Source of the DNA: an uncultured Candidatus Poseidoniales archaeon
Lineage (GTDB): Archaea; Thermoplasmatota; Poseidoniia; Poseidoniales; Poseidoniaceae
NCBI GenBank assembly: GCA_964431435.1
Contig: CAYSJV010000002.1
Span: 11,203-51,374, forward strand
DNA length: 40,172 nucleotides
Direction: 5' to 3'
Shown: one piece after another, positions 1-20,706 of the stretch
Layout: every line of letters begins with the position of its first letter
Numbering within the stretch: position 1 is the first letter of the stretch
The notes under the pieces: generated by a model
The model's database searches: none
Seen by the model: only the letters and a program-made list of their open reading frames with translations
Told to the model about the DNA's origin: nothing
Made by a program: the position numbers and the translations under genes

Positions 1-1073
1 GCCTCCTCAAAACCGCCTTTTTTAACTAATTCCTCCGTCTGGCCACATAACTCTATTGCATTTATTTTACTCATTGCTTTCAGAACATCAGTATTACCCA
101 ACGTACCAATCCACAAAGGACCTGAAACCCTATTTTTTGATATTTCATTGGGAGGTTTATCCCATGGTAAAAAACATCTTTTTTGCTTTAAGTTAGGACA
201 ACCATGTGGATGAAGGTTAGATGAAATACTAATTTTTAGTTCAGATTCAGTAGGGGAGTTAATTCTCCAGCCAAGATTGTCATAGGAATTACTTGCTTTT
301 GATGGGCTTTCTTTTACCATTACACTTACTCTAGCATGATGGTCATCAAAAATAGATATTAGCGGTTCAATAATTCTCGAATGTCTTGCAGCAATTATTG
401 ATATTTGTCCAAGAAGAACCCTTAGTGCAGTATCATGTGCAGCTTTGTCTACTACTGCAGTAATTCCATACTTTCTTTTTGCTGCAGTAGGTGAAGAACC
501 ACAAAGAGCAGCAGTATCAGTAGCACTTACTTCAAGTACGGCAGTTCTGGTAAGTGATTGCAATGCTGAATCAAGAAAGGGTATAGGACTTCCAAATGGA
601 TCAATATCAATCCAATTCCATCTTTTGTTCAATACCGTTTTTCTAAAATCACCAGTTACAAATTCAATATTGGAAAAATTAGTATTGTTAGGTGGATGCA
701 AGAGATTGTTATGTTGTGCCCATGCAGTTGCTTCTGGATTTAGGTCATTTACAGTTATATTTACATTCTTCAATAATTCGGGAGATATTTCATTCACCCA
801 TCTTCTTCCTCTTAAGCCACTTGCACCCAATCCTTCTAGTACATTAATTTCTTTAGAATTAAACCATTTCTTTGAAAGTGCATGAGATAGAAGCATGACA
901 CTTCTAGTTCTATTTGGTGCCATGGCTGTATTATGGAATACAGGCACCCCCCTTTTTCCACCAGGCCCCGCTCTAAATTCACCTTGACCTTCAGCATCCA
1001 GAACTTGCGTTAGGGTACGCCCCTCTAACCAGTTTTTACCCGGCCACCCATTTGGTATATTTTTTTCAGACAT
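1..1073 (-). CDS. trm1: tRNA (guanine26-N2)-dimethyltransferase Trm1, 3' end outside window
   Basis: Not in ORF track. Manual translation from ATG at 1073 gives MSEKNIPNGW...PVFHNTAMAPNRTRS...VLEGLGASGLRGRRW...IDIDPFGSPIPFLDSA...SATDTAALCG, which are Trm1 motifs. Purine-rich GGGAAGGT precedes the ATG. Confidence 0.9.
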   Translation of the reverse strand, partial: MSEKNIPNGWPGKNWLEGRTLTQVLDAEGQGEFRAGPGGKRGVPVFHNTAMAPNRTRSVMLLSHALSKKWFNSKEINVLEGLGASGLRGRRWVNEISPELLKNVNITVNDLNPEATAWAQHNNLLHPPNNTNFSNIEFVTGDFRKTVLNKRWNWIDIDPFGSPIPFLDSALQSLTRTAVLEVSATDTAALCGSSPTAAKRKYGITAVVDKAAHDTALRVLLGQISIIAARHSRIIEPLISIFDDHHARVSVMVKESPSKASNSYDNLGWRINSPTESELKISISSNLHPHGCPNLKQKRCFLPWDKPPNEISKNRVSGPLWIGTLGNTDVLKAMSKINAIELCGQTEELVKKGGFEE

Positions 1074-1081
1074 ACCTTCCC

Positions 1082-2218
1082 TCAATAGTGATCAAAAACT
1101 ACCTCAGGATTGATGTGAGTGACTTTATGTGTTTTTTCCACAACATTTCCGATAATTGCAGTTCCTGGAATTTTATCTTTCAACCATTCACATAATTCTT
1201 CAGATGATTCTTTTGATACTGCTAAAACTATACCCAATCCCATATTGAATGTTCTATGCATTTCTCTGTTGCTAATATTTCCTTTTCCAGCCAACCATTC
1301 AAATTCAGGGAGAATAGAAAGAGGATTGGATATGTGATATCCCATTGATGGATGTAATCTTAGTAGGTTGGATAATCCACCTCCTGTAATATGAGCAATA
1401 CCATGAATATCGGACCAATTACAAGGCCCCTCGTTATTCCAACACATTTTGAATAGATCTACTAATGGATCCACATAGATTTGTGTGGGATTGAGCAACA
1501 CTTCACCCAAGGTTACTCCTGAATTTTCAGCCGAAGAACTAAATCGATGAATTGTCCTATTTTCATGCTCGGCATCAAAAGGACAGATCTCATTTAGATT
1601 ACTTCCTTCTCTCTTAATTACTTCTCTAACTAATGAAAAACCATTAGAATGAATCCCCGATGAAGGCAACCCAATCAATACATCTTCACCTGTAATACAT
1701 TCACCAGTTAATTGATTTCCTTTAGGTAACCAACCCAATGCAGTCCCTGAAAGATCTAGATCATTAACAATTCCAGGTAAGCTTGCAGTCTCTCCACCCG
1801 CAAGAGTTACTCTTGCAATCTTTGCTGCATTACCTAGCCCAAGCCCAACTGCTCCATGTGTAATTGGATCTGGTTTTGGGGTTGCAATATAATCAACAAA
1901 CGCAAGTGGTTCTGCACCAATACAAATTAAATCATTTACATTCATAGCCATACAATCTATTCCAACAGTTTCCCATTCACCTAGTTCACTAGCTAGCATA
2001 AGTTTACTGCCGACACCATCTGTACACATTGCAAGTAACGAATCTCCAAATTCTACTAGTCCTGAAAATCCACCAGCGTGTTCTACTGGCGCACCAAATT
2101 CCCCAGGCCTTCTAAGGGCTGAGCCTTTTAGGGATTTTACGAGTGCACTTACTGCAGAACCTTCCAAATCAATATCGACTCCACTTTGTGCGTAATCAAG
2201 CGACTTTTCGTTGCCCAT
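1082..2218 (-). CDS. purM: phosphoribosylaminoimidazole (AIR) synthetase
   Basis: YAQSGVDI, TDGVGSK, GIDCMAMNVNDL, GGETA, SSGIHSNGFSL, AHITGGGL, TFNMGLG. Confidence 0.97.
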   Translation of the reverse strand: MGNEKSLDYAQSGVDIDLEGSAVSALVKSLKGSALRRPGEFGAPVEHAGGFSGLVEFGDSLLAMCTDGVGSKLMLASELGEWETVGIDCMAMNVNDLICIGAEPLAFVDYIATPKPDPITHGAVGLGLGNAAKIARVTLAGGETASLPGIVNDLDLSGTALGWLPKGNQLTGECITGEDVLIGLPSSGIHSNGFSLVREVIKREGSNLNEICPFDAEHENRTIHRFSSSAENSGVTLGEVLLNPTQIYVDPLVDLFKMCWNNEGPCNWSDIHGIAHITGGGLSNLLRLHPSMGYHISNPLSILPEFEWLAGKGNISNREMHRTFNMGLGIVLAVSKESSEELCEWLKDKIPGTAIIGNVVEKTHKVTHINPEVVFDHY

Positions 2219-2278
2219 GTCAGTCCCATACTGTTTAGGCTCTTGAGGGTGATGCCGAAGGTCAGTTTAAATCTCGGC

Positions 2279-2347
2279 GTAAATTTATAGTAAATTGCCA
2301 AATCATGTAAATCAGTGATTTTTCCTTCTTAGGAAATATTTGTAAAT
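2279..2347 (+). repeat. AT-rich tract with four GTAAAT direct repeats and a TTTCCT-N4-AGGAAA palindrome (candidate unwinding/bent element)
   Basis: GTAAAT at 2279, 2290, 2307 and 2342; palindrome at 2321-2336; lies next to the ORB-like motif. Confidence 0.5.
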
Positions 2348-2363
2348 TGAAAAATCGATTCCC

Positions 2364-2398
2364 TCCACTGTTTACACTTTCCAGTGGAAATCAAGGGG
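2364..2398 (+). promoter_or_regulatory. Origin recognition box (ORB)-like Orc1/Cdc6 binding site with inverted half-site; candidate oriC
   Basis: TTCCAGTGGAAATCAAGGGG (2379-2398) matches the euryarchaeal ORB core TTCCAGTGGAAA plus G-string; TCCACTG (2364-2370) is the reverse complement of CAGTGGA (2382-2388). Confidence 0.7.
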
Positions 2399-2454
2399 TC
2401 AAATCGCGATGATTAAGTGCCCTAGCATTTCACTTTGAGTCTCGCGGTGTTGAT

Positions 2455-4593
2455 ATGGTAGTCATGGCTTCTGAAGTTTCTGGTTTGTGGCAATCATTTT
2501 TCAAGGAAAATTCATTTGAAGAAGTTCGCAAATTAATCTTGTATTGGCCAGATATGCGCAGTTTAATAGTTTCATATGCGGATTTGCAAACATTTAATCC
2601 AGAATTTGCTCAATATGTAGTAACAAACCCACAAAATAGTATTTCCACAGGACAAAAGGATCTTAGGAAATACTGTAGGAGTATGGGCAAAAAGGACATA
2701 AATGTTTTTTTACGCCTTCAAGATTTACCAAAAGACCAACAACGACCGATTGATAAAATTAGATCTGAAGATATAGGACAATTGTTAGGGGTAGATGCCA
2801 TTGTATCTCGAATCTCAGGAGTAAGGCCCCGATTGTTTGAGGCAGCATTTCAGTGTACTTGTGGAGCCATATGGAAGGAAATGCAACCAAATGAACAACA
2901 ATTAATCGAACCAATGTGGTGCAGTAATCACGGAGACGATCACGGATGTGGGCTAAAAAGACCGAATCTTCGCTTTACACTTATCCCTCAAGAATCACAA
3001 ATGGTTAACACCCAGTTCATAGAACTTCAACAGCCACCCGAACAGATGAAAGGTGGAGGACAAACAGATAGAATAAGTTGTATTGCAGACCACGATCTTG
3101 CAGGGCAACTGTCCCCAGGAGATAGGGTGATTGCAAATGGAGAGCTATTTGTAAGAACAAAAAAGAAAGGGGGTAAAGAAACACCTGTTTTTGACATATT
3201 TTTACAATTATTATCTATTGAAAGACAAAATATACCCTTAGAAGAAGTCCACATAAGTGAGGAAGAAGAACAAGAAATCAAGGATTTAGCATCGAGGTCC
3301 GACATTAAAGATTTGTTAGAAAATAGTATTGCACCATCTATATTTGGATATGGTGAAATAAAACGATCATTGGTATTGCAGTTATTTGGAGGAGTTTCTA
3401 GAAAAAATCCAGATGGAACAAGATTAAGAGGAGACATCCACGTATTGCTTCTTGGTGATCCAGGTGTTGCCAAATCACAGATGTTACATTTCATGTCTCA
3501 AATATCCCCCAGAGGTCGCTTTACTAGTGGAATGAGCGCATCGTCTGCAGGTTTGACTGCGGCAGCAGTTCAAGATTCAACTGCAGATGGCAGATGGACT
3601 CTAGAGGCGGGGGTATTGCCACTGGCAGATCAAGGTTTAGCAGCAATTGATGAATTTGACAAAATGGGGGAGGGTGACCGTTCATCAATGCACGAGGCAA
3701 TGGAACAGCAAACAATTAGTGTATCAAAGGCAGGAATTAATGCAACTCTTTCAACAAGATGTGCAGTTTTAGCAGCAGCCAATCCCAAGGGCGGAAATAG
3801 ATTTATTACAGATTTTGATGAATATCCGTTTAACACTCAAGTGAATATAGGGCCCGCATTATTGACTAGATTTGATGTAATTTGGCTTATTACTGACACA
3901 ATAACTGGAGCAGAAGATGAACGAATTGCAGGACATATCATGAACACACGTGCAGCAGGTGTTAGTGAAGTTCTAATTGAGGAAGGCGCGGAAGCAGATC
4001 CAGCATCAGCATCGGCAAAATTAGAAACTGATAAATCAGCAGATGGAAAAGAAATCATCGGTCGAGATTTATTCAGAAAGTATATTGCTTATACAAAAAG
4101 AAACATACATCCCATTTTAGATAATGATGCACGTGCAAGGATACAAGAATATTATGTTGAGACTCGAAGGAAGAAAGGCCCTTCACACGATAGTGTAGCA
4201 ATATCTCCTCGTTCACTCGAAGCACTAGCACGTCTTGCAGAGGCTTCAGCAAAGATTAGATTATCTCAAGTGGCCTCACGTGAAGATGCTGAAAATGCCA
4301 TAATGATTACTGAGCAATGGCGAAATGATGTAATGGGCCCAAATTATGATGAAACAACAATGCATACAGGAATGACTTCTACGAAGAGAGATCTAAGGGG
4401 GAAAATCTTGTCAGTAATACATGATTATCAAAACAATAATGGTGGCAGACAAATGCCAATCAATGAATTATACGAAATACTAAAACAAGAAAACATCGAC
4501 AAAGCAGAAGCAGAACCTTTAATGGACAAATTAAGTTTAGAAGGCACAATTTTCTTCCCATCCGGTGATAAAGTAGGCGTTTCCAATAGGTAA
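2455..4593 (+). CDS. mcm: MCM replicative helicase
   Basis: Zn finger CTCG...WC...GCG, Walker A GDPGVAKSQ, Walker B IDEFDKM, HEAMEQQTISVSKAG, Arg finger LLTRFD, sensor-2 SPRSLE, C-terminal winged-helix-like region. Start could be ATG 2464. Confidence 0.98.
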   Translation: MVVMASEVSGLWQSFFKENSFEEVRKLILYWPDMRSLIVSYADLQTFNPEFAQYVVTNPQNSISTGQKDLRKYCRSMGKKDINVFLRLQDLPKDQQRPIDKIRSEDIGQLLGVDAIVSRISGVRPRLFEAAFQCTCGAIWKEMQPNEQQLIEPMWCSNHGDDHGCGLKRPNLRFTLIPQESQMVNTQFIELQQPPEQMKGGGQTDRISCIADHDLAGQLSPGDRVIANGELFVRTKKKGGKETPVFDIFLQLLSIERQNIPLEEVHISEEEEQEIKDLASRSDIKDLLENSIAPSIFGYGEIKRSLVLQLFGGVSRKNPDGTRLRGDIHVLLLGDPGVAKSQMLHFMSQISPRGRFTSGMSASSAGLTAAAVQDSTADGRWTLEAGVLPLADQGLAAIDEFDKMGEGDRSSMHEAMEQQTISVSKAGINATLSTRCAVLAAANPKGGNRFITDFDEYPFNTQVNIGPALLTRFDVIWLITDTITGAEDERIAGHIMNTRAAGVSEVLIEEGAEADPASASAKLETDKSADGKEIIGRDLFRKYIAYTKRNIHPILDNDARARIQEYYVETRRKKGPSHDSVAISPRSLEALARLAEASAKIRLSQVASREDAENAIMITEQWRNDVMGPNYDETTMHTGMTSTKRDLRGKILSVIHDYQNNNGGRQMPINELYEILKQENIDKAEAEPLMDKLSLEGTIFFPSGDKVGVSNR

Positions 4594-4613
4594 TCAATCG
4601 TAGTATCTATCAT

Positions 4614-6773
4614 ATGGCATCGATTCCAGACATCATGGCCTCCATATCTGACACACCCGAGGGGGATATTTCTAATGCTGCGGATTTTAATCCTGAAGCA
4701 TTGGGATTTATGTGTGGTTTGGAAATACATCAACAACTTAATACTGACAAATTACATTCTAGAGAACAGAGTATACTCTTTGACTATAATGCAGAAAATT
4801 TACCATCAGAATTACCACAAATCAATCGAAAATTACGTGCTGCAGAGGGTGAAAGTGGCAAGGTAGATATTGCAGCCAAATTTGAATCTAGACGCAATCG
4901 AAAATTTGTTTACATTCAATCACCGAATGCAGGATTAATTGAACTTGATGAACAACCCCCATTACCACATGATTCAGAAGCAGTAAAGGCAACCTTAACA
5001 ATTTCAGGATTAATGAATGCGCACCCACTTCCAGTAATGCAAGCAATGCGTAAAACAGTTGTTGATGGCTCAAACACCTCAGGATTTCAACGTACAACAC
5101 TTATGGCCACACATGGTTCAATAACAACTGATGAGGGAGAGGTAGGAATTTCTCTAATTTGCTTGGAGGAAGATAGTGCGAGAAAACTAAAATCTGAATT
5201 GACAACTAAAGGAGAAATTGTAACTTGGAATTTAGATAGATTAGGTATACCTTTGGTGGAGATAGCCACTGAACCCGAGATAATATCTCCAGAACACGCA
5301 AAATCTGCCGCACTCAAACTCGGGACAATATTGCGTGATACTAGAATGGTACGTCGAGGTTTAGGAACAATCCGACAAGATTTGAATGTATCAATTGCGT
5401 GCGGGGATCGTGTTGAAATAAAGGGCTGTCAAGATCTTGAATGGATCCCTAGAATAATAAGATTAGAAATGGCTAGGCAACTACATTTTTACCGAATAGC
5501 GAATGAGTTAAGAAAATCAAGTGGTTTTTCTCTACTTTCATCCGATAGAAGAAATGATTCTAAAGAAGAGGAAATGAAGATAGAAAAAGAAGTTGAGAAA
5601 TTAATGCCACTAGATGTAGTAGATGTATCTAATTGTTTTTCTTCAACAGAAGCAAAATTGGTACAGGATTCTTTCTCTAATGAGGGAGTTGTAATGGCAA
5701 TTAAGTTAGTAGGATTCTCAGGAAAACTTGGATGTAAGAAAATGGATTTAGGAGGAGCACAAATGCCTCGTTTAGGAAGAGAACTTTCTTCTGCAGCAAA
5801 AGTGGTAGGGGTAAAGGGAATTTTTCATAGTGATGAATTACCCGCTTATGGTATTTCAGAAACTGAAGTAAAACAAATAAGTGTAGAGTTAAATTTAGGA
5901 GAAAAAGATGCATTTGTTCTTTGTGCAGCACCTGAATGGCAAGCCCAACTTGCATTAGAATCTGTTATGCTTAGAGCAAGAGCAACATATCATCGTATAA
6001 GGCAAGAAGTACGTAATGTGGTGATAAGAAAAGGAGAACCAGAAGATGGAACCACTACTGCTATGCGCCCTCTTCCTGGCGGTGCTAGAATGTATCCTGA
6101 GACGGATATCCCTCCCTTAATATTAGATTCAAACCTCTGGCAAAACATAGTATCTTCACTTCCTCCTTCTACAAATGAAAGACTCCTCAATTTATCAAAT
6201 TTTGATATTTCAGATAATCAAGCAACTCAGTTAGTTTCTCAACATCTTGATGATGAATTTGTGAAAGGGACTGATGGAACTTTGATGAAAGGAATCTCTT
6301 CACTTTCATCCAAAGGCTGGGCTTCACTACTTTTAGATTCAACTCGCAAGGAAATTGCAGAAAGCATTCAAGGTACAATTGATGACGTTCCTCTTTTACT
6401 TCTAGCAGCATTACAACATGTTAGAGATGAAGGAAATTTGACTAGAGAGGGAACAATACCACTTGCAATAGAAATTCTAAACAGCACAGAATGGCCTCAT
6501 ACAAACAAACTCACCTCCGAAGTTGTGTTGGCTTTAATAGATGAAATTAACAATCGTTCTGAGCTGATGGGATATAAACCAGCATCTTCAAGTGAATTAA
6601 GTAAAGTTGTAAAACAAATTGTTGATAGCAGAATCGATTTTGTAAAAGAGCGCGGATTAGGTGCACTTGGGCCTTTGATGGGATTAGTTATGAAGGAGTT
6701 TGAAGGAGGAGCAGACGGAAAACAGGTTAGTGCCTTACTTAAGGAAGAAATTGAAAAGATAAGTAGGGAGTGA
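4614..6773 (+). CDS. gatE: glutamyl-tRNA(Gln) amidotransferase subunit E
   Basis: GLEIHQQL, MRKTVVDGSNTSGFQRT, LDRLGIPLVEIAT, RGLGTIRQDLNVSI, FHSDELPAYGI, MRPLPGGARMYPETDIPP, Yqey-like tail. Confidence 0.97.
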   Translation: MASIPDIMASISDTPEGDISNAADFNPEALGFMCGLEIHQQLNTDKLHSREQSILFDYNAENLPSELPQINRKLRAAEGESGKVDIAAKFESRRNRKFVYIQSPNAGLIELDEQPPLPHDSEAVKATLTISGLMNAHPLPVMQAMRKTVVDGSNTSGFQRTTLMATHGSITTDEGEVGISLICLEEDSARKLKSELTTKGEIVTWNLDRLGIPLVEIATEPEIISPEHAKSAALKLGTILRDTRMVRRGLGTIRQDLNVSIACGDRVEIKGCQDLEWIPRIIRLEMARQLHFYRIANELRKSSGFSLLSSDRRNDSKEEEMKIEKEVEKLMPLDVVDVSNCFSSTEAKLVQDSFSNEGVVMAIKLVGFSGKLGCKKMDLGGAQMPRLGRELSSAAKVVGVKGIFHSDELPAYGISETEVKQISVELNLGEKDAFVLCAAPEWQAQLALESVMLRARATYHRIRQEVRNVVIRKGEPEDGTTTAMRPLPGGARMYPETDIPPLILDSNLWQNIVSSLPPSTNERLLNLSNFDISDNQATQLVSQHLDDEFVKGTDGTLMKGISSLSSKGWASLLLDSTRKEIAESIQGTIDDVPLLLLAALQHVRDEGNLTREGTIPLAIEILNSTEWPHTNKLTSEVVLALIDEINNRSELMGYKPASSSELSKVVKQIVDSRIDFVKERGLGALGPLMGLVMKEFEGGADGKQVSALLKEEIEKISRE

Positions 6774-10910: not shown

Positions 10911-11901
10911 TGCATGTTCTAGAGAAGGCAGCTCCAAGTAAACAGACAATGGTCATACTTACTGAGATATTTGGCAGCATTGATGAATCTTCAACTGGGT
11001 CGATATTAATCTCGATATCTTCATTTATCCCCCAACCATTAATTTCCATTACAAGAACTAAACTTAGATCATCACCATCATATATTTCAGGCATTGTTAC
11101 TACTTTCTCACCAGATGCGTTACCAAGGCCAATTACATCTTTAACAACATAGTGATAATTAGTTAAACCGTTACTACCATCAGGGAAATATACAGTATCT
11201 TCGACAACAAATAGTGATAAAAATAATGATGGATTATAATTTTCAGGAATTAGAGAACTGGAGTTTATTTGCTTCCCCCATTCAACATTATCGAATGACC
11301 ATGTGACTTTTCCCGTTGAGTTACCATAGTTTTCCCAGGTAAAACTAAGATTTGGATTTTCATCTACTACTTTAGTTTCTGCTAAGGATTTGAAATTTTC
11401 ATACGTCCCAGATATACTTCCAATTACAGGTGTTCCACCATTTATTACTACCATTGGTTGTAACCTTTGTCCGTTTCTCCTATCCCACCACTCATCTCCT
11501 GCAATTGTTCCAAAAGGATCTTCATATTCACCTTCTCCTAAACAACATTTATGAAAATGCAATTGTGTCATAGACATATCATTTGCCACTTGATCGAGTG
11601 CTTCTTCTACTTCAACACAATTTTCACACCATGTGGCGGTATAATCTTCAGCGATAACCGGAAAACCATTCGTTCCATCTGCAGTGGAAATATTTGAAGA
11701 ATCACTATTATTCACAGCTAAACTAAGTCCGCCGATTAGAGGGCCATGGGCAAAAGTACATGCCATATTTTCAACACTATAGGATAAGCAACTATTCAAA
11801 TCATCATATTGAGTATTCTCATTTGACTCTGCAGTCACAAAATTAAAACAACTAATAGTTAATATTCCAACTAATAATATGCTGTAGACACTATTTCGCA
11901 T
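10894..11901 (-). CDS. exported thioredoxin-fold (Omp28-like) protein with C-terminal membrane anchor
   Basis: N-terminal signal peptide, EDYTATWCENC (CxxC), cis-Pro-like QPMVVING, C-terminal LPNIS + hydrophobic helix + basic tail. Confidence 0.7.
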   Translation of the reverse strand: MRNSVYSILLVGILTISCFNFVTAESNENTQYDDLNSCLSYSVENMACTFAHGPLIGGLSLAVNNSDSSNISTADGTNGFPVIAEDYTATWCENCVEVEEALDQVANDMSMTQLHFHKCCLGEGEYEDPFGTIAGDEWWDRRNGQRLQPMVVINGGTPVIGSISGTYENFKSLAETKVVDENPNLSFTWENYGNSTGKVTWSFDNVEWGKQINSSSLIPENYNPSLFLSLFVVEDTVYFPDGSNGLTNYHYVVKDVIGLGNASGEKVVTMPEIYDGDDLSLVLVMEINGWGINEDIEINIDPVEDSSMLPNISVSMTIVCLLGAAFSRTCIKKFE

Positions 11902-11936: not shown

Positions 11937-12031
11937 GCTCTAATGCTTTAATATACCAACTCTTCATGAAGTATTGACAGGAATAATTGAATAACCCGGA
12001 CGTTGTAGTCAATAGGTCAGGTGGAGAATAT

Positions 12032-15000
12032 ATGGAACAAATCACAATTGAACATGTACCACCGGGTAGTGGGCTGCCATGTTGGCTAATCGACCTATTT
12101 GTCAATCAGATTAGTGGTTTAAATACTAAGGGAAATAAGAGACTTCTTGTTTTGTATCCTAATGAAAAATCTCGTAAAGAGGGAATGCAAAAAATCACGG
12201 AAAAGATCAATGTACCTTTAGATTCCACTCAACATCAAACACTGAATCGCTTGATTGAATCACTTGTTGAAGATTTACGAATACCGCGTAAATTTTCAGA
12301 TGATAGTATACTTTTTGAATTGATACATAACGAATGTACAATTTCTGCGGACAAGGGAGGATTCCCCTTAATTTCTTCACCACGGGTAATTTGGAATCGT
12401 TCAAAGACACGTTTAATCAACCAGCTACATACTGAATTGTGTGAAGAAAAAATACCTGATAATTGGGACGAAGATCCAGGGATTATTGAATTTGAAAAAG
12501 TGGTAAGTAGATTAGAAAATAAGTTACACTGCTCTCATCCAAATATGATTTATAAGCATATACAACGAGAATTGCTGAAAATAATTGATAAAGGTAAGAA
12601 ACCATTCTCTCTTGCAGATATAGATGGTATAATTATGATGAATCACGCACCAACAATCTCTTTTCAAAGACATAACTTGTTACAATTAATTAGTCGTTTT
12701 TGCCCAATCCATCAATTATGTAATCCAGGAAGATTCAGACCTGGATATCATGGTGCATATCTGAAAGATGTGGAACCATGTAGGAATAAAGGGGATTTAC
12801 CACAGTGGATTCCTTCGCATGAACTGGAACAGAATTCAAATCAGAAAATTATCAATAATATTTCACGGATTGCTTTACGGCGCACCCACCACTCTGAGTC
12901 GGCAACAGTTGAACTTTTGAAAGAGTGGATTGAGAAAAATCCTAATGGGCAGGCAATTATTGTAGACCCTAGAGAAAAAAGAAATCGTGCTATTTGGATT
13001 CAATTAATGAACGAAATTGGAATAACAGTTAGTGCTGGAGAAGAAAACTTACTCAGTAGTCCAAGTGTACATTGGTTTATTGAGATGTTAAGATTAGGAT
13101 ATGGAGAAGATGCATGGTCTGCACAGAAAATTTGTGATTTTTCAGATCAAACATCTCTTCCATTTACTACAGAATGGGTAATGCCAGCGCCTCACCCATG
13201 GAAACAAGAATGGGTTCCAAAACTTCACTCAAATATGATCTTTGAAATGGCTAGAGGTCAACATCTACTTGGTGGAATAGGAAGCCTTGAAAGATGGTTA
13301 TGGATTTTGAGTAATTCAAATTTCGATTCAACATGGGAGAGTAAAGAAAGCTTAATGCAAAAACGAGAAGAATCTCAATGGTGGCTACTGTCTATTGCAA
13401 CTAGATTGAGATCAATATTGTCTGATGAAGATAAGCGAACATTAGAAAACCAAAAATTTGGCATTGGATGTGCTAGTGGGGAAAAATTACCTCTCCCCAA
13501 ATCAGAAAATATGGGAGACAATTGTTTTTCTTCCGTAATTTCAAATTTGAATTGGAATGAGTTACTTACCGAACTAACTTTTGAGAATGGAAGTATGATT
13601 AGCGGTATTCAACAATTGGTTGCATCACATAACAAATTAAGGGAATTACAAACACAATTGGGTCACAATATACCAACAGGTGGTGATGAGTGGATAGACG
13701 AATTATGTAGTTTGGTTGTTAACAAATTAGAGAAAGGGAGGACGGCGATTTCAGATCAGGTCAGGATTCTTTCACCAAAAGAAGCATTAGGATGTACCGC
13801 GGATTTGATAATATTACCTCGATTATCCCAAACAGATTGGTCACTACAAACAAAAATAATACCATGGTTAGATCCTGAAACAAGAAATAGATTAGGAATA
13901 TTAAGACCAGATAACCCAATAAGAGAAGCGAGACACTACTTTAATCATATATTGAATTCTGCTGAAGAAGTAATTCTTTTTGACCCGTCATTCGAAGAAT
14001 CAAATCAACCAGCGGGGCCACTTGCAGAATGGTTATCAAAACAAGAAACCCTGCACTCAATGCAAGTACCCAAACTTCTCCAAGATTCTTATCTTGGCAA
14101 TCCATACTGGATCTCTTGGCCAACTGAAAAACCAATTCTTTTATCCCCAAACCCGTCTCAAATTACCGTAGAAGAAGGGATTGTTAAATCTCTCACGAAT
14201 GGTACTAGAGAAAGAGATGAAAGACAAAGAGATGGGAAATTGATTAGATGCGGCCAACCATCAGGTAGAGAACCCATTCATGCACCATCTTTGATTACTC
14301 ATCTAAATTATGGGATGATGGAGGATAGGAAAAATAGAGAGCCAATATTGAGTATTGATTCAGAACTGTATCTTGATGAGCAAAGATTAACAGAATTTGT
14401 TTCAACAACCGCACTTAAAATTAAATCAAAGGTTCCAAAGAAAGACATAGTTAAGCCCAGATATAATGAATTCTGGCCAGTTATCGGAGTTAAGACAGAT
14501 AGCGGCCGCTTCACACCTTCCATCGACATCCGACCATTATCACCTGCTCCAATAGGTATAGCTTGGTATGACCAAAGTCACGGCCAATCTAAGGGAATTA
14601 CCGGAACCGAAAAAATCTGGTCTGCTACTAGATTGTCAAACTGGATTCAATGTCCAAGGAAAGGTTGGTTAGAATCAAGATTGAAAGTAAGTGAAGAGGA
14701 AGTATTAGATGAAGATATTGATTTTAGAGAGCGAGGTGCAATTGTGCATGAATCCCTTGCCGAATTAATGTGCTCAAATCTTAATTTAGAAATGGGGGCG
14801 GAAAGAACCACATTTAATCCTAGTAATTTACAATCATTACCTCAAAGTATTGAAGAAATGATGTCTGAACTAATTGATATAACTCTCAATAAAGCATCTT
14901 GGTTGAAGAGAAAAGATGCAGTTGCAGAACACAGAAGAAGGCAACTTTTAGGAATGGGATATTCGGAATTACAAGAGTGGATGGACAATCCAGATAATAT

Positions 15001-15754
15001 CTCTCCTAGGGGGATACTAGGCCAATTACTAATTTCGGAGATAGGTCTTGAAAACACAAATATTGTAGCATTGGAATGGAGATTATGTGAAAAAGAATCT
15101 AATCCATTAGACGGAATTAAAGTAGAATTACCCCCTTCACCAGAGGACAAATCTTCTGAAACAAGTTGCATTCATATTAGAGGAATGATAGATAGAGTTG
15201 AAATTCTGCCAGAATTAGAAAAAGATTCCAGTATCCCCAAATCAGAATTAGTATCCCCTCTTGATATGAATTTAGATTATTCAGAAATTCCTCAAAGATT
15301 GGTAATCATTCGCGATTTGAAATCAATAGAAAGAGGAAAGCCGGGGGAAAGGCATAACAAAGCATTGTTAGAAGAAGTACAACTTGCATTGTACGCAAGA
15401 GCTTGGGAACTCACCCATCCAGGGGATCGTGTTGTTGGAGTTGGGATAACAGAAGTAGGAGATAAAACAACACACTTTTTAGAATGTGACCCACAGTATT
15501 CGTCACACATTAGCTCATTAAATATTGGAGTTGTAACTAACACAACATCTGAAATCTTTCGCAGACCTGGAGAAACATCATCTCCTAATTCAAACCCATT
15601 TAGATCATGGATAAGGCAACGGCTTCAAACAGCTGTTAAAGCGGCCAATGCTGCAAATTCAGGAAATGTGGTACCCACACCAAATAAAGGTTGTAGTTAC
15701 TGTTCTGTAAAGAAAATCTGCGGATTATCTCATATAGGAGGGGACAGAGAGTGA
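12032..15754 (+). CDS. AddB/RexB-like subunit: degenerate helicase scaffold + C-terminal PD-(D/E)XK nuclease with 4 Cys
   Basis: WSATRLSNWIQCP, RGAIVHESL, IRGMIDRVE, IIRDLKS, QLALYARA, CSYCSVKKIC; no Walker A seen. ATG 12032 after GGTGGAG preferred over TTG 11987. Confidence 0.85.
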   Translation: MEQITIEHVPPGSGLPCWLIDLFVNQISGLNTKGNKRLLVLYPNEKSRKEGMQKITEKINVPLDSTQHQTLNRLIESLVEDLRIPRKFSDDSILFELIHNECTISADKGGFPLISSPRVIWNRSKTRLINQLHTELCEEKIPDNWDEDPGIIEFEKVVSRLENKLHCSHPNMIYKHIQRELLKIIDKGKKPFSLADIDGIIMMNHAPTISFQRHNLLQLISRFCPIHQLCNPGRFRPGYHGAYLKDVEPCRNKGDLPQWIPSHELEQNSNQKIINNISRIALRRTHHSESATVELLKEWIEKNPNGQAIIVDPREKRNRAIWIQLMNEIGITVSAGEENLLSSPSVHWFIEMLRLGYGEDAWSAQKICDFSDQTSLPFTTEWVMPAPHPWKQEWVPKLHSNMIFEMARGQHLLGGIGSLERWLWILSNSNFDSTWESKESLMQKREESQWWLLSIATRLRSILSDEDKRTLENQKFGIGCASGEKLPLPKSENMGDNCFSSVISNLNWNELLTELTFENGSMISGIQQLVASHNKLRELQTQLGHNIPTGGDEWIDELCSLVVNKLEKGRTAISDQVRILSPKEALGCTADLIILPRLSQTDWSLQTKIIPWLDPETRNRLGILRPDNPIREARHYFNHILNSAEEVILFDPSFEESNQPAGPLAEWLSKQETLHSMQVPKLLQDSYLGNPYWISWPTEKPILLSPNPSQITVEEGIVKSLTNGTRERDERQRDGKLIRCGQPSGREPIHAPSLITHLNYGMMEDRKNREPILSIDSELYLDEQRLTEFVSTTALKIKSKVPKKDIVKPRYNEFWPVIGVKTDSGRFTPSIDIRPLSPAPIGIAWYDQSHGQSKGITGTEKIWSATRLSNWIQCPRKGWLESRLKVSEEEVLDEDIDFRERGAIVHESLAELMCSNLNLEMGAERTTFNPSNLQSLPQSIEEMMSELIDITLNKASWLKRKDAVAEHRRRQLLGMGYSELQEWMDNPDNISPRGILGQLLISEIGLENTNIVALEWRLCEKESNPLDGIKVELPPSPEDKSSETSCIHIRGMIDRVEILPELEKDSSIPKSELVSPLDMNLDYSEIPQRLVIIRDLKSIERGKPGERHNKALLEEVQLALYARAWELTHPGDRVVGVGITEVGDKTTHFLECDPQYSSHISSLNIGVVTNTTSEIFRRPGETSSPNSNPFRSWIRQRLQTAVKAANAANSGNVVPTPNKGCSYCSVKKICGLSHIGGDRE

Positions 15755-18700
15755 AGGGGTATAATCGCAGTCAAAGATTAGGATTGGATATAGATAGGCA
15801 TGTTGCTATTGATGCGGGTGCAGGAACTGGAAAAACAACTGTGATGTCAGAGAGATATATACAGCATCTTCTTTCATCAATTCAAAGAGCCACCTACCTT
15901 CTTCCTCATGGTCCGAGAAGACCACTAATTGGTTCGGGAAGCATTGTTGCTCCAAAAAGAGAACAAATATCTTTGGAAGAGTGGCAAGGGTTACTACCTA
16001 GCGAATGTGTAGCAATTACATTTACAAATAAAGCAGCAGAAGAACTGAGACAAAAAATAAGAAACGGGCTTAATGCACTATTAGACAAAACATCTTCAGT
16101 CGACGGCCCCGTACAAAATAGAACAGATCCAAGAATAAAAAATGATGGGGAATTAGAGCATCTCATATCATTATTAAATGATGCACCGATTGGCACAATT
16201 GATAGCTTCTTCGCCTCTTTAGTTGGTAATTGGAAAGGACTTCTTAGTGATATACCCACCAATGAATATGTTTCAGAAGAAAGACGCCCATATCTAGTAA
16301 ATACAGCGATACAGTCTGCTTGGAGAATGCAAAATTCAAATGATGGTTTTGCACTAGGGCTCGTCGGAGATATTGAATTATTTATTGAATCTAGAAACAG
16401 ACTTTCTTGGCAAATGGGAGGGCAAAGATCCGCTCAAAGTATCATTGAAAATTTACTTGAAAAGTCTCTATTTGTAGAAGAAGCAGAGAGAAATCTCAAA
16501 AATCTCTCCTCAAATAATTCAGGCGAAGTAACAAGTACAATTTCACTTGATTCACTCAAAAAATTATTCTTATCGATGATACCTAATTTGAATGAATTGG
16601 TAGCAGAATTATTTGCTTTATATTCAGAATGGTTGGATATATGTAGGGAAAATTGGAAAGGTTTCGACCTCACATCTGCATTATCCATCAACTCAAGATT
16701 TGCTAGCATAAACGAATTAATTGAATCAGGGCCACCTGATTTAGATTGGGAAAAATTACTATGGTCACACCATTTAATTGTAGCATCTTGTCCTCTGGCA
16801 AAGATATTAGATTCAATACCTAATGTGTTTTCTGACAAAGGTTTACTTCCTCGAAATGCTGGTAAAAATCCATGGAAGAGAGGCATGGGGCCTTATGGAG
16901 GAATAGCCTCCAATGTCAGAGAATCTGTTAAACAAAAATTATCTAATATTGCGGATAAAACTAGTAACAGATTAAGTAGCCCAGACATGAGGATGCTTAG
17001 AACAATATCTAGAAGCGCATATCTTTTCAGTCCTGATTTCCCAGTACCAAAGCTACCTCAGGATTGTTCTATTTTCATAGATGAGATGGAAGACCCCCTT
17101 CCAATTTCAGATCCTTCAATAACAACACAATTAACCGCAATACAACAAATAGGACTAATCGAGGATTTATTTGTAGTTCACACCGGTGTACAATCAATTT
17201 TGAGAGATATTAAGTCTAGAGAAAGCGTGCATGATCATAGTGATATACAACGTTTAGCAGAGGATTTGTTGTTAGCACATTGCCCTCAAATATGCAGACA
17301 ATGGTACCCAACACAGGTCATTGAATCATTAGACCAATTAGAAAATGAAGCGTGGCGAGACACTCATATTGAGAGTGCTTTGCTAGCAGCATCTGAACAT
17401 CCTGATGTTTTAGAGGACTTAACAAGAAGATATGAAGTGTTAAAGAAAATACGTAGACAATATTTGTCATTCATAATTGATGAGTATCAAGATACAAACC
17501 CACAACAATTCAGATTACTGGCAAGGCTTTGGGGTTCTCGACTCAGACAGGAGGGAGACCCAGAACCACCACAAAGTGACTGGGATCCTACAATATGTTT
17601 AGTAGGAGATGTCAAACAGAGCATATACCGTTTTCGTCAAGCACAAGTAACTGTGATGAAACGTACCGCGGAATCAATCTGCAAAATGAATACAATGGAA
17701 TTTGAGCAGGAATCAAGATTAGAATCATTAAGGAAAGATGAATTTGGTAGAGATCCAAGGCCTCTTTCAGGAGGATTAGAGGATGGAACATTTGTAACTG
17801 GAAAACAAAAAGAAGTAGAACCCGAACCCTCTAAAGAATCTTGGATTGCATTTGATCTAGATGATAATGGATTAGTATTAGATTACAGCATTGCCATTCG
17901 GCGCTCAAAAGGGCATATTGATTTGTCAACAAATTATAGAACTGCAGGAGGACTTTTGCATATGATGAATGATTGGTTTGAAGACAGTTTTTCAGATAGA
18001 CACGATATCTTGAATGGGGATTGGCACGCCAGACATCAAAAATTAACTCCTTCTCCAGAGAATGAAAACAAATTAGGAAATATTGAATGGCTATTACCTG
18101 TTAATGAGGGTAATACAGTACCTCCTTCTGATTTAGAAATTCAATTGAATCCTTTTGATATCAAATCTACCCCCTCTTGGAAATTAGAAAACGAAATGAT
18201 TGCAAGCAGGCTTCATAGTTTAATTAATGGTTCATCTACAAAAGTAATTTCCTCAAATGGAAAGATGGAGAATATCCCCCCTCAACCACAAGTTAATCCT
18301 GAAGAGATTACAATTTTGTTACCTAGGAGAACGCACATCTCTGATTTGATGGAAAGATTGTCAAATTGGGGTGTTCCTGCTCAAGCAGATAGGCAAAGTA
18401 ATTTACTCAAACGACCAATAATTTCAGAATTAATAGCACTAATTCAAGCGGTAGCAAACCCAGATAATAGGCACGCACTAGCACGTTTGGCCAGAACCTC
18501 ATTTATCTCTATGAGTGACTCAAAATTGCAATCATTTTTGGTTGATAAAAATGGAAAAACAATCAAAGGGGATTTGATTGAAAGACTAGTAACATTATCA
18601 GAAAACAAAAAACAAAAGTCGATGTTTGAGACGTGGAGAAAAACATCATTATCTGGAGATATAATTTCTTTATTAGAACTAATGTTGAATCAATCAGATA

Positions 18701-20706
18701 TTTTGCTAGTACATTCGGATGATAACTCCCGGCAAGAGGCTGAACAATTCATAAAATTGGTTAGATCAATTTCACTTAGCGTGGGAGGTGATATCTCACT
18801 TCTGTCTAGAAGAATTACATCTATGTTAAATCAAGGAGTGAAGATTGAATCAGAAACATCCCCTTCCTCTAATGCAGTGAAAGTAATGACAATACATTCT
18901 GCAAAGGGTTTGGAAAATAAAGTGATTGTTATTGCTGGATTATTTGATGAAGGCCAACAAACCTTGACTTTGAGTCAAAGGGGTAATTTATTGATTACAC
19001 CTGAACTAATTGCCGGAAGAATGAGGCCATGGCAAGGTGGGACAGTACCTGAAATGGGAATCTGGGAGTTAGTAAAAACATTGACTAAAGCACAAATTGC
19101 TGCAGAAGCGAGAAGATTGTTTTATGTTGCATTAACGAGAACTCAAGATCATTTGATTTTATCAGGCGCACCAAAAGGAACAACCATAGATGCTGATACA
19201 GGAACGATTACAATCACAAGAAAACCAAGTGATATGCCAAGTATGGGGGAAATGTGGTTAGAATCTTTGAGACAAACATCGATTAAGCATTCTTATTCCG
19301 AATCTCCATGGGTCTTTTCAGAAGATTTAATCACCCCAAATCCACTCCCAATTACTGAAAATAAAAAATTATTTATTTCTCCATTTCAAATACTAGGTCA
19401 ACCATTTTTAGGTCCAAAAACCCCTACCGATTTTAGAATATATCATACACCATTATGTTTTGAAGAGGTGGGAGGCTCTAAATCCCCACTGGAAATGATG
19501 AAAACCCATGTAAATGCCCTGCATTTACCTTCTCTAAATAAATTAGATAAAATACCATACGTTAGAGGAATAAATTTAGATGTAGCACCAAATAAATTGG
19601 ATACTTCTAGTCTTTGTAAGCGTAGATATATGCTTGAAAATTATGTGGGGTTATCCGCAGAACCAATAATAATTCGAAAACAAAGTGCTAAGATAGAAAG
19701 TACAAAATCAGATATTTTACCTACCCCAGCGGAGTTGGGAACAATGTATCACCGACTCATGGAAATAGGGATCGGTAATCCAAATATTTCTAATCCATTA
19801 ACATCTGATTTACCGGATAACTGGTTACGTCGACAAAAATCCATAACTTCTAATTTACAGACAATAAATAGAGTACTAGATGAGTTATTGCCACTTGGTT
19901 ATGACTCTGAAAGAACGGCGGAAAGATTACACCAATTATCTAAACTACAAGAAAAAGGACCACTTGGTTTACTTTGTAATGGAGATGAGATTAATGGGTT
20001 AAAAGTGGAAGGGCTAATAACTGAAATGCCGTTTAGTGTTTCATTTAATCAGGAACATGGAGATTTATTCCTTGAATCTTGGACTCCATTTGGAGAGATA
20101 CAAACCCAGCAAACTCAAAGGAGTACAATTAGATTCAATGGACGTATGGATTTAGTCCTTGCATTAAGAGACTCAGATGGTAATGGATATATCCAAGCAG
20201 TAGATTTCAAAACAGAAGAATGTAGAACTGGTTTCAATTATACATACCCTGAAAATGGAAATCCATTACAACAATTCCCTGAAAGTTCTAATAATTTTGA
20301 TGATAGAACTGATGCTGAATCTAAATTGCTTTACAATCATCGAATGCAATTATCCCTCTATAATAAAGCGTTGAGTATCTGGCAAGATACTGTTGCAAAA
20401 TCATCCAAAAATTCAAGATCGGTATTACCCCCTGCAATTTTGGTTGCAGCTAATGGTAGATTGGTTAGTTGGAACAAAGAAGAAATGAAACAAAATAGTG
20501 TTGAACTTGATGAATTACTAGGCTGGATGTCTAGTGTTGCTGGCGGAGAAAAACCGCCGCTTCATGAATTACCCAGATTAGGGGATGATGAAAAGGAAAC
20601 TTGTCAAAAATGTCCCTTTTACATAGGAGATATTCGAATATGTGCACCAATTGGTGAAGATTTGGGAATTATTAAGTCGGATGAATCGCCCGAAATTGGT
20701 GCCTAA
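15751..20706 (+). CDS. AddA/RexA-like UvrD-family (SF1A) helicase with C-terminal RecB-family nuclease
   Basis: AGAGTGKT, ITFTNKAAEELR, IGTIDSF, IIDEYQDTN, VGDVKQSIYRFRQA, NYRT, MTIHSAKGLE, EARRLFYVALTR, GRMDLV...AVDFKT, QLSLY; GTGA overlap with upstream stop. Confidence 0.92.
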   Translation: MKGYNRSQRLGLDIDRHVAIDAGAGTGKTTVMSERYIQHLLSSIQRATYLLPHGPRRPLIGSGSIVAPKREQISLEEWQGLLPSECVAITFTNKAAEELRQKIRNGLNALLDKTSSVDGPVQNRTDPRIKNDGELEHLISLLNDAPIGTIDSFFASLVGNWKGLLSDIPTNEYVSEERRPYLVNTAIQSAWRMQNSNDGFALGLVGDIELFIESRNRLSWQMGGQRSAQSIIENLLEKSLFVEEAERNLKNLSSNNSGEVTSTISLDSLKKLFLSMIPNLNELVAELFALYSEWLDICRENWKGFDLTSALSINSRFASINELIESGPPDLDWEKLLWSHHLIVASCPLAKILDSIPNVFSDKGLLPRNAGKNPWKRGMGPYGGIASNVRESVKQKLSNIADKTSNRLSSPDMRMLRTISRSAYLFSPDFPVPKLPQDCSIFIDEMEDPLPISDPSITTQLTAIQQIGLIEDLFVVHTGVQSILRDIKSRESVHDHSDIQRLAEDLLLAHCPQICRQWYPTQVIESLDQLENEAWRDTHIESALLAASEHPDVLEDLTRRYEVLKKIRRQYLSFIIDEYQDTNPQQFRLLARLWGSRLRQEGDPEPPQSDWDPTICLVGDVKQSIYRFRQAQVTVMKRTAESICKMNTMEFEQESRLESLRKDEFGRDPRPLSGGLEDGTFVTGKQKEVEPEPSKESWIAFDLDDNGLVLDYSIAIRRSKGHIDLSTNYRTAGGLLHMMNDWFEDSFSDRHDILNGDWHARHQKLTPSPENENKLGNIEWLLPVNEGNTVPPSDLEIQLNPFDIKSTPSWKLENEMIASRLHSLINGSSTKVISSNGKMENIPPQPQVNPEEITILLPRRTHISDLMERLSNWGVPAQADRQSNLLKRPIISELIALIQAVANPDNRHALARLARTSFISMSDSKLQSFLVDKNGKTIKGDLIERLVTLSENKKQKSMFETWRKTSLSGDIISLLELMLNQSDILLVHSDDNSRQEAEQFIKLVRSISLSVGGDISLLSRRITSMLNQGVKIESETSPSSNAVKVMTIHSAKGLENKVIVIAGLFDEGQQTLTLSQRGNLLITPELIAGRMRPWQGGTVPEMGIWELVKTLTKAQIAAEARRLFYVALTRTQDHLILSGAPKGTTIDADTGTITITRKPSDMPSMGEMWLESLRQTSIKHSYSESPWVFSEDLITPNPLPITENKKLFISPFQILGQPFLGPKTPTDFRIYHTPLCFEEVGGSKSPLEMMKTHVNALHLPSLNKLDKIPYVRGINLDVAPNKLDTSSLCKRRYMLENYVGLSAEPIIIRKQSAKIESTKSDILPTPAELGTMYHRLMEIGIGNPNISNPLTSDLPDNWLRRQKSITSNLQTINRVLDELLPLGYDSERTAERLHQLSKLQEKGPLGLLCNGDEINGLKVEGLITEMPFSVSFNQEHGDLFLESWTPFGEIQTQQTQRSTIRFNGRMDLVLALRDSDGNGYIQAVDFKTEECRTGFNYTYPENGNPLQQFPESSNNFDDRTDAESKLLYNHRMQLSLYNKALSIWQDTVAKSSKNSRSVLPPAILVAANGRLVSWNKEEMKQNSVELDELLGWMSSVAGGEKPPLHELPRLGDDEKETCQKCPFYIGDIRICAPIGEDLGIIKSDESPEIGA

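Follow-up and report, generated by a model that had tools for sequence, protein, structure and literature searches.

In the stretch of 40,172 nucleotides analysed here (the window), which covers positions 11203–51374 of contig C2 in the genome assembly of an uncultured Candidatus Poseidoniales archaeon (G000; 1.75 Mb in 141 contigs, 84% complete, 38% G+C), the gene mcm lies at 2455–4593 on the + strand (712 aa; Pfam MCM 5e-82, plus MCM_lid and MCM_OB). It is the single replicative helicase gene and is present in one copy in the assembly. A gene for a PurM-like, AIR synthase-related protein is transcribed divergently from it (1082–2218, − strand; Pfam AIRS and AIRS_C), and both genes share an intergenic region of 236 nt (2219–2454). 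In this region, 57 nt upstream of mcm, we have identified a full origin recognition box (ORB), TTCCAGTGGAAATCAAGGGGTCA, at 2379–2401 on the + strand, with its G-string toward mcm. An earlier reading made from the sequence alone (the sequence-only reading) had noticed the motif TTCCAGTGGAAATCAAGGGG at 2379–2398, together with an inverted half-site, an AT-rich tract and a switch in gene direction, and had proposed either an origin of replication linked to mcm or an operator at which Orc1/Cdc6 would control mcm transcription. The motif is present as described and runs on as ...GGGGTCA to 2401.

The box is composed of the dyad core TTCCAGTGGAAA (2379–2390, + strand), an exact match to the ORB-type core, followed on the same strand by the spacer TCAA, the G-string GGGG (2395–2398) and then TCA. 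The GGGG stands four bases after GGAAA, which is the spacing of the Methanomassiliicoccales ORB consensus, GTTCCAGTGGAAATGG-AGGGGTA, in Table 2 of Borrel 2014 (PMC4153887); that paper gives an archaeal ORB consensus as well. The exact 12-mer core occurs once in the window. With up to two mismatches, 8 matches were obtained against 5.99 expected, a number reached by 29 of 100 shuffles, and only the exact site stands out because these looser matches are at chance level. Across the whole assembly the 12-mer was found three times and the 23-mer, within 5 mismatches, twice (the mcm site and C23:19522), so that, besides the mcm ORB, the 1.75-Mb assembly contains only one other full ORB. A weight matrix trained on relatives only gave these two sites 32.8 and 28.4 bits, respectively, while the next best match scored 19.3 bits and the maximum of the null, consisting of 5 shuffled genomes, was 17.7 bits. 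The weaker matrix matches (≤19.3 bits) were considered as further ORBs and rejected; all of them are inside open reading frames (ORFs) and score within or near the shuffle range. The sequence-only reading had also stated that no orc1/cdc6 gene is in the window, and both copies are indeed on other contigs, C112 and C72. An Orc1-type gene is present in the assembly (NF001625, 517.5 bits against a cut-off of 501), and in complete relatives the orc1/cdc6 genes lie 216–315 kb or more from mcm. ORBs beside orc1/cdc6 were looked for in the assembly, yielding none near either gene; the cores with one mismatch on C72 are intracoding and have no G-string.

The conservation of the motif upstream of mcm in related genomes, which the sequence-only reading had named as a check, proved overwhelming. 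The ORB was detected in 30/30 Poseidoniales loci of three families, whose MCM is only 40–59% identical, and in 9/9 further genomes of the order (39/39 genomes in all). It was found as well in 77 of 80 named mcm contigs, and the 3 misses had ≤77 nt of upstream sequence, hence all 77 informative contigs carry it; these sets overlap in genomes and all their members are related by descent. Among the species representatives searched, no second genome of the genus of G000 was found, and the nearest MCM relative is 59% identical over a partial gene and 56% over full length. The orientation of the box is identical in all loci, the G-string being always toward mcm. In 110 unique sequences from relatives, TCC, GGAA and GGGG are 91–99% conserved (98–99% for the G-string), and the spacer positions vary freely, with 49 distinct 20-mers among 77 loci. 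The PurM-like gene is the upstream neighbour in 95 of the relatives' 118 mcm loci and is absent in 23; in loci without it the ORB is kept wherever upstream sequence exists. The ORB tracks mcm, independently of the upstream neighbour. Outside Poseidoniales no comparable ORB was found at mcm in 29 genomes (9 loci and 20 upstream regions), one of which belongs to the sister order of the same class, with a matrix that may miss diverged ORBs; in 3 of the outgroup regions there are moderate reverse-strand matrix matches farther upstream of mcm. The order-wide conservation upstream of mcm argues that the ORB is functional and tied to mcm, and by its sequence we regard it as a genuine initiator box, conserved throughout the order and tied to the predicted mcm promoter.

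The surroundings of the ORB point to such a promoter. When the 110 unique sequences were anchored ungapped on the ORB, most flanking positions held <0.3 bit, and a TTATATA-like box, with an A-rich patch before it, appeared at +41..+47 (84% have A at +43), along with a conserved CCGG..G block at +71..+77. After motif refinement, 93 of 107 unique sequences have a 10-mer TATA-like box that begins at +38..+41 (at +39 in 83); the refinement was started at +39, favouring that offset, and the ungapped profile gives the same peak independently. In another 7 of the 107 sequences, G000 and its two nearest relatives among them, the box begins earlier, at +31..+33. In the window it reads GATTAAGTGC (2411–2420, + strand; core ATTAAGT at 2412–2418) and begins at +31, as it does in two near relatives; it is the predicted mcm core promoter. 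The centre of the ORB dyad is separated from the centre of the TATA-like box by ~32 bp in G000 and ~40 bp in most relatives, and MCM codon 12 is 108 nt away from the ORB in G000 and 113–137 nt away in 77 loci. A putative Shine-Dalgarno-like GGTG is located at 2446–2449 (+ strand), 6 nt before the mcm ATG. The ORB thereby has the features of a promoter operator, namely a fixed position and orientation with respect to the putative TATA box and an attachment to mcm that outlasts changes of neighbour.

We favour the reading that the ORB is an Orc1/Cdc6 operator at the mcm promoter, to which we give a somewhat better than even chance. Of the two options of the sequence-only reading, it is this one that has gained support, from the fixed spacing between the ORB and the TATA-like box. 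The mcm ORB is also the best-matching ORB in the genomes, and Matsunaga 2007 (PMC1904270) reports strong binding of Cdc6 to a single full ORB and weak binding to a mini-ORB. We infer from sequence the binding of Orc1, the assignment of the promoter and the regulatory effect. According to this operator model, a single near-consensus predicted Orc1/Cdc6 site would be placed just upstream of the region of the TFB recognition element (BRE) and the TATA box of the mcm promoter, with the G-string, and hence the AAA+ side of the bound initiator, toward the promoter. The cognate initiator would most likely be the Orc1-1-type protein of contig C112. Bound Orc1/Cdc6 may help or hinder the recruitment of TBP and TFB at mcm, by which helicase synthesis would follow how much initiator there is or which nucleotide it carries. 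In archaea, activators bind upstream of BRE, and the placement of the ORB upstream of the predicted BRE/TATA region would lean slightly to activation. Most probably the box does not mark the main origin but serves the initiator in adjusting how much helicase is made.

The mcm region lacks the architecture of an origin. Its intergenic region (2219–2454) contains 60.6% A+T, which is the 36th percentile of 154 intergenic regions of the assembly, and neither its length nor its most AT-rich 60-nt window is out of the ordinary; the AT-rich tract that had been reported to the left of the ORB is therefore nothing unusual. Upstream of the mcm ORB, two GC-richer relatives have 41–43% A+T over 100 nt, against 47–48% for the locus. 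The inverted half-site TCCACTG does exist at 2364–2370 (+ strand), being the reverse complement of CAGTGGA at 2382–2388 (7 nt, 100% complementary, 11 nt apart), yet it is specific to G000 and is not conserved in relatives, where the corresponding positions −16..−10 of the ORB-anchored profile carry little information. A non-coding RNA at this place was considered and rejected, with no Rfam match at E ≤ 1 in 2100–2600 and an unremarkable hairpin involving the half-site (z = −1.67). Nor was a conserved inverted full ORB found at mcm in the profile of the 110 unique relatives. An oriC is recognised by at least two inverted ORBs flanking an AT-rich element, and the sole inverted element at mcm is the 7-nt half-site; an adjacent initiator gene (orc1/cdc6 or whiP), which is usual and not obligatory, is also missing there. 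The switch in gene direction holds in so far as trm1 (3–1085, − strand) and the PurM-like gene point leftward and mcm rightward, but it is merely local, since four large upstream ORFs are on the + strand again. Raw GC skew in the window reflects nothing but gene orientation, and on the contig of G000 only 5 genes lie to the left of the mcm site, two of them giant ORFs. In two complete relatives, no step in strand composition or gene orientation was found at the mcm ORB (step t −0.9 and +0.2). In comparison with the ORBs of Sulfolobus oriC1, Pyrococcus oriC and Methanomassiliicoccales, the mcm box has the same dyad core, G-string and spacing; unlike them, it is a lone box without an inverted partner or an unwinding tract, is not beside orc1/cdc6 and is fixed to the TATA-like box of mcm.

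A pattern search of five good relatives yielded three recurrent ORB loci, namely the one at mcm and two others, called here B and C. Locus B is an inverted ORB pair with G-strings outward, 146–232 bp start-to-start, just upstream of a beta-CASP metallo-beta-lactamase gene, and such a pair is present in 29/30 relatives' loci found with the beta-CASP gene (G011:C1:203746–203929; G039:C1:186219–186390; G037:C1:682659–682830; G009:C13:23743–23925; loci L251–L279). The identity of the mcm box as an ORB is supported by this canonical inverted pair, which belongs to the same motif family and occurs in the same genomes. The spacer between the boxes of locus B is 8–20 points richer in A+T than the locus, and the resulting order ORB(−)/AT-rich/ORB(+) fits the minimal origin pattern, ORB(−)/DNA unwinding element (DUE)/ORB(+), as given in the Ori-Finder-Arch preprint. 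The pair is far from both orc1/cdc6 genes in relatives. In 3/3 genomes with both on one contig, mcm is 102, 121 and 109 kb from the pair and is transcribed away from it.

Strand-corrected third-position skews and gene orientation were followed in two closed genomes, G011 (family f1) and G039 (family f3). The strongest step is on the pair in both, with a combined t of +4.2 at 200 kb in the first 536 kb of G011 and of +6.5 at 185 kb in the first 414 kb of G039, and the step maxima of the third-position GC and AT skews (GC3 and AT3) were reached by 0/100 permutations. Genes diverge from the pair in G011 (left 53−/24+, right 58+/29−) and in G039 (left 47−/39+, right 67+/34−), and forks leaving the pair region would run in the same direction as the transcription of the rRNA and L14 operons. 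An opposite large-scale AT3 switch was located in G011, sampled at 39%, at 1.19–1.24 Mb, which equals the position of the pair plus half the genome (1.236 Mb). The Poseidoniales oriC is probably best placed at the inverted ORB pair beside the beta-CASP nuclease gene, ~100–120 kb upstream of mcm in complete relatives. For G000 alone we infer from its relatives that the origin is elsewhere than at mcm, since locus B is missing from the 84%-complete assembly; tblastn and a genome search did not find it there, the sole match being a 634-aa aCPSF1-type paralogue on C28 with 27% identity.

It is consequently very improbable that the main oriC lies at mcm, linked to this gene instead of orc1/cdc6, as the sequence-only reading had put first. 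The presence of an ORB, the local divergent transcription and the absence of the canonical pair locus from the incomplete assembly would agree with it; yet the inverted pair is conserved in 29 of the 30 relatives' loci, the composition step falls on the pair in two complete genomes of different families, and the AT3 switch of G011 does not include the position of mcm plus half the genome, 1.338 Mb. Each of the points raised below against a weaker origin at mcm applies to it as well. With no inverted full ORB and no AT-rich tract at mcm, and with the inverted pair and the composition step elsewhere, the proposed mcm-linked oriC is unsupported as the main origin.

The sense of the composition step, on the other hand, speaks against part of our interpretation. 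The + strand is G,T-rich to the left of the pair and C,A-rich to the right, the signal extends only ~100–130 kb on each side, and both gene orientations shift. If the pair is the origin, this local polarity is the reverse of the bacterial leading-strand rule, which is unexplained and weakens the placement of the origin. The step is part of a local strand-composition domain around the pair (~100–330 kb of G011:C1 and ~90–330 kb of G039:C1), and on the scale of the whole genome the AT3 skew of G011 runs in the classical sense. Two other arrangements were considered. A major origin near 1.2 Mb of G011, as the reversed polarity would have it, was rejected; it would place the rRNA and ribosomal-protein operons and ~650 kb of + genes head-on. 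Two origins near 100 and 335 kb, with forks meeting on the pair, would give classical polarity and were judged unlikely; genes would be head-on in both domains, and the ORB(−)/AT-rich/ORB(+) pair would be put at a terminus. The divergence point of this two-origin model would be ~25–30 kb beyond mcm, away from the mcm ORB.

The mcm site might be an additional origin, weak or dormant, or a place where MCM is loaded, made of the full ORB and a distal mini-ORB and existing besides the main origin at the pair. The site is a full near-consensus ORB, and ~52 bp upstream of it most relatives have a weak mini-ORB, TTTCCAGTGGAC, at −54..−43 from the main ORB (44–65% majority bases). In G000 this distal mini-ORB is degraded; TTCC-N6-GGAAA at 2322–2336 (+ strand), a poor match, is possibly its decayed form. 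Archaea with several origins are well known (PMC4010727), a minor origin could escape skew analysis, and a diffuse composition transition of opposite sense lies ~25–30 kb beyond mcm in both complete relatives. Nevertheless, there is no inverted full ORB at mcm, as would be required by the minimal pattern ORB(−)/DUE/ORB(+) of the Ori-Finder-Arch preprint, and the 40-nt gap between the full ORB and the mini-ORB is not AT-rich. The step t at the mcm ORB is within noise in comparison with the values at the pair. The genes between the pair and mcm point to mcm (58+/29− and 67+/34−), and an origin at mcm would replicate them head-on. Besides, a weak origin needs no fixed spacing to a TATA-like box. 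Altogether we consider a weak origin unlikely.

Another function by which an initiator box could act at a distance from the origin is titration or inactivation of the initiator. By analogy with datA of E. coli, an early-replicated site ~100–120 kb from oriC might buffer free Orc1 with no control of mcm. The mcm ORB is the best-matching ORB in the genomes and its distance from the pair is similar in the three genomes with both on one contig, both of which agree with such a role; however, for titration the box would neither have to keep its orientation and its spacing to the mcm TATA-like box nor have to follow mcm when its neighbours change, and one site offers little capacity. We hold titration to be quite improbable, though less so than a main origin at mcm.

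The Orc1/Cdc6 operator at mcm has its own difficulties, which should be set against it. The TATA role of the box at 2411–2420 is read only from its conservation, and a look-up of 1500–4500 of the window returned no RNA run. The locus counts within Poseidoniales overstate independence through common descent. The weak mini-ORB of most relatives would provide, together with the full ORB, two initiator sites, enough perhaps for a minimal loading platform. Moreover, ORBs are by definition origin elements, and an initiator-type Orc1 acting as a gene regulator has little precedent, because the Pyrococcus initiator is reported to bind in vivo practically only the oriC region (PMC1904270). Taking these points into account, we put forward a broader hypothesis only tentatively, with chances a little short of even: throughout the order, Orc1/Cdc6 would double as an mcm transcription factor through a lone, highest-affinity, promoter-locked ORB, forming a feed-forward or feedback loop like a DnaA regulon, while the true oriC would be unlinked from orc1/cdc6 and located beside the beta-CASP gene.

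DnaA boxes occur in bacterial promoters, such as those of dnaA and nrdAB, and at datA. The logic proposed for mcm is alike, in that an initiator box would be reused outside the origin for coupling of expression or for titration; the proteins, however, are unrelated, and the mcm case is a prediction from sequence. Among archaea, Sulfolobus Orc1-2, a non-initiator Orc1 paralogue, is described as a transcription regulator of the DNA-damage response (PMC9738581). As described, it shows that in archaea a protein of the Orc1/Cdc6 family can regulate transcription from promoters that it binds. The motif known for Orc1-2 is another short one, not the ORB, and the targets of this protein are damage-response genes, not mcm. 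In Thermococcales, an ORB cluster lies inside dp1, the gene of the PolD small subunit (Matsunaga 2007, PMC1904270). The cluster and the mcm box are both conserved initiator boxes tied to a replication gene and not only to an unwinding region, yet the dp1 cluster is intracoding and within the 5-kb oriC/cdc6 region, whereas the mcm box is ~100 kb from the candidate origin and in a putative promoter. Isolated ORBs have also been listed downstream of ftsZ and of nifH/nifE in 'Ca. Methanomassiliicoccus intestinalis' (PMC4153887 Table 2). Each of these, too, is a lone full ORB apart from the orc1-linked origin, in a related phylum-level group, but no conservation, promoter geometry or link to mcm is reported for them in that table.

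In the literature searched, among the matches listed, we found no account of an ORB at the mcm promoter or of a Poseidoniales replication origin, although such origins may already stand in the supplementary tables of the Ori-Finder-Arch preprint; in the available text of Samson 2013, Wu 2014, Raymann 2014, Berthon 2008 and a 2025 Nature Communications paper there is no mention of an ORB at mcm. Archaeal Orc1/Cdc6 initiators are regarded as origin-specific. If the operator model is true, the mcm box, kept through the whole history of Poseidoniales, would show more clearly than any other case at the level of sequence the reuse of an initiator-type ORB for gene control, and it would link the supply of the licensing factor to the status of the initiator. 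Poseidoniales (Marine Group II) are a globally abundant order of marine archaea, for which the candidate oriC matters in estimates of growth rate from metagenome coverage (peak-to-trough). As the pair is far from both orc1/cdc6 genes, predictors that search beside orc1/cdc6 would miss it.

The other full ORB of the assembly (C23:19522–19544; positions 3523–3545 of locus L311) belongs to locus C and lies ~400 nt inside a gene for a protein of 884 aa, where it is read in frame as S-S-G-N-K-G. A mini-ORB is found ~97 nt upstream of this gene (C23:19021–19032; L311: 3022–3033) and is followed by tandem ATGTAAC repeats. The internal ORB is at the same codon position in 29/30 relatives' loci and the upstream mini-ORB is present in 22/30; in relatives the gene is ~5 kb from orc1-1. 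The protein has an ArsR-like N-terminus and a weak atlas lead to clusters of ArsR-type helix-turn-helix proteins (0.79–0.81), and no Pfam or NCBIfam family was found for it. Locus C could be the origin of a captured element or an autoregulatory region. The mean number of mismatches to the dyad and the four G is 0.53 at mcm, 1.25 at locus B and 1.21 at locus C, with sites picked by a matrix trained on mcm sites, which favours these. In one genus (G001, G012 and G023; loci L021, L022 and L031, and the respective B and C loci) the ORB dyad has ACC as its central triplet at mcm and AC[CA] or A[TA]C at most B and C sites, while the triplet is AGT in most other genera. This is suggestive of a concerted shift of initiator specificity, in one lineage only.

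Regarding the neighbourhood of mcm, gatE, which encodes subunit E of the Glu-tRNA amidotransferase, follows at 4614–6773 on the + strand and is directly 3′ of mcm in 113/118 loci. This conserved adjacency of a replication and a translation gene is of the kind discussed by Berthon 2008. The intergenic region of mcm and the PurM-like gene contains a direct repeat, GTAAATTGCCAAATC at 2290–2304 and GTAAATTGAAAAATC at 2342–2356, with a spacing of 52 nt, and a third GTAAAT at 2308; the 2290/2342 repeat resembles the TGTAAC repeats at the C23 locus. Finally, four very large ORFs of 1255, 1651, 1483 and 1584 aa are located around the locus on the + strand, at 11987–15754 and 15751–20706 of the window and, upstream of the window, at ~390–4840 and ~5680–10430 of contig C2, and the latter two have an atypical third-position composition.

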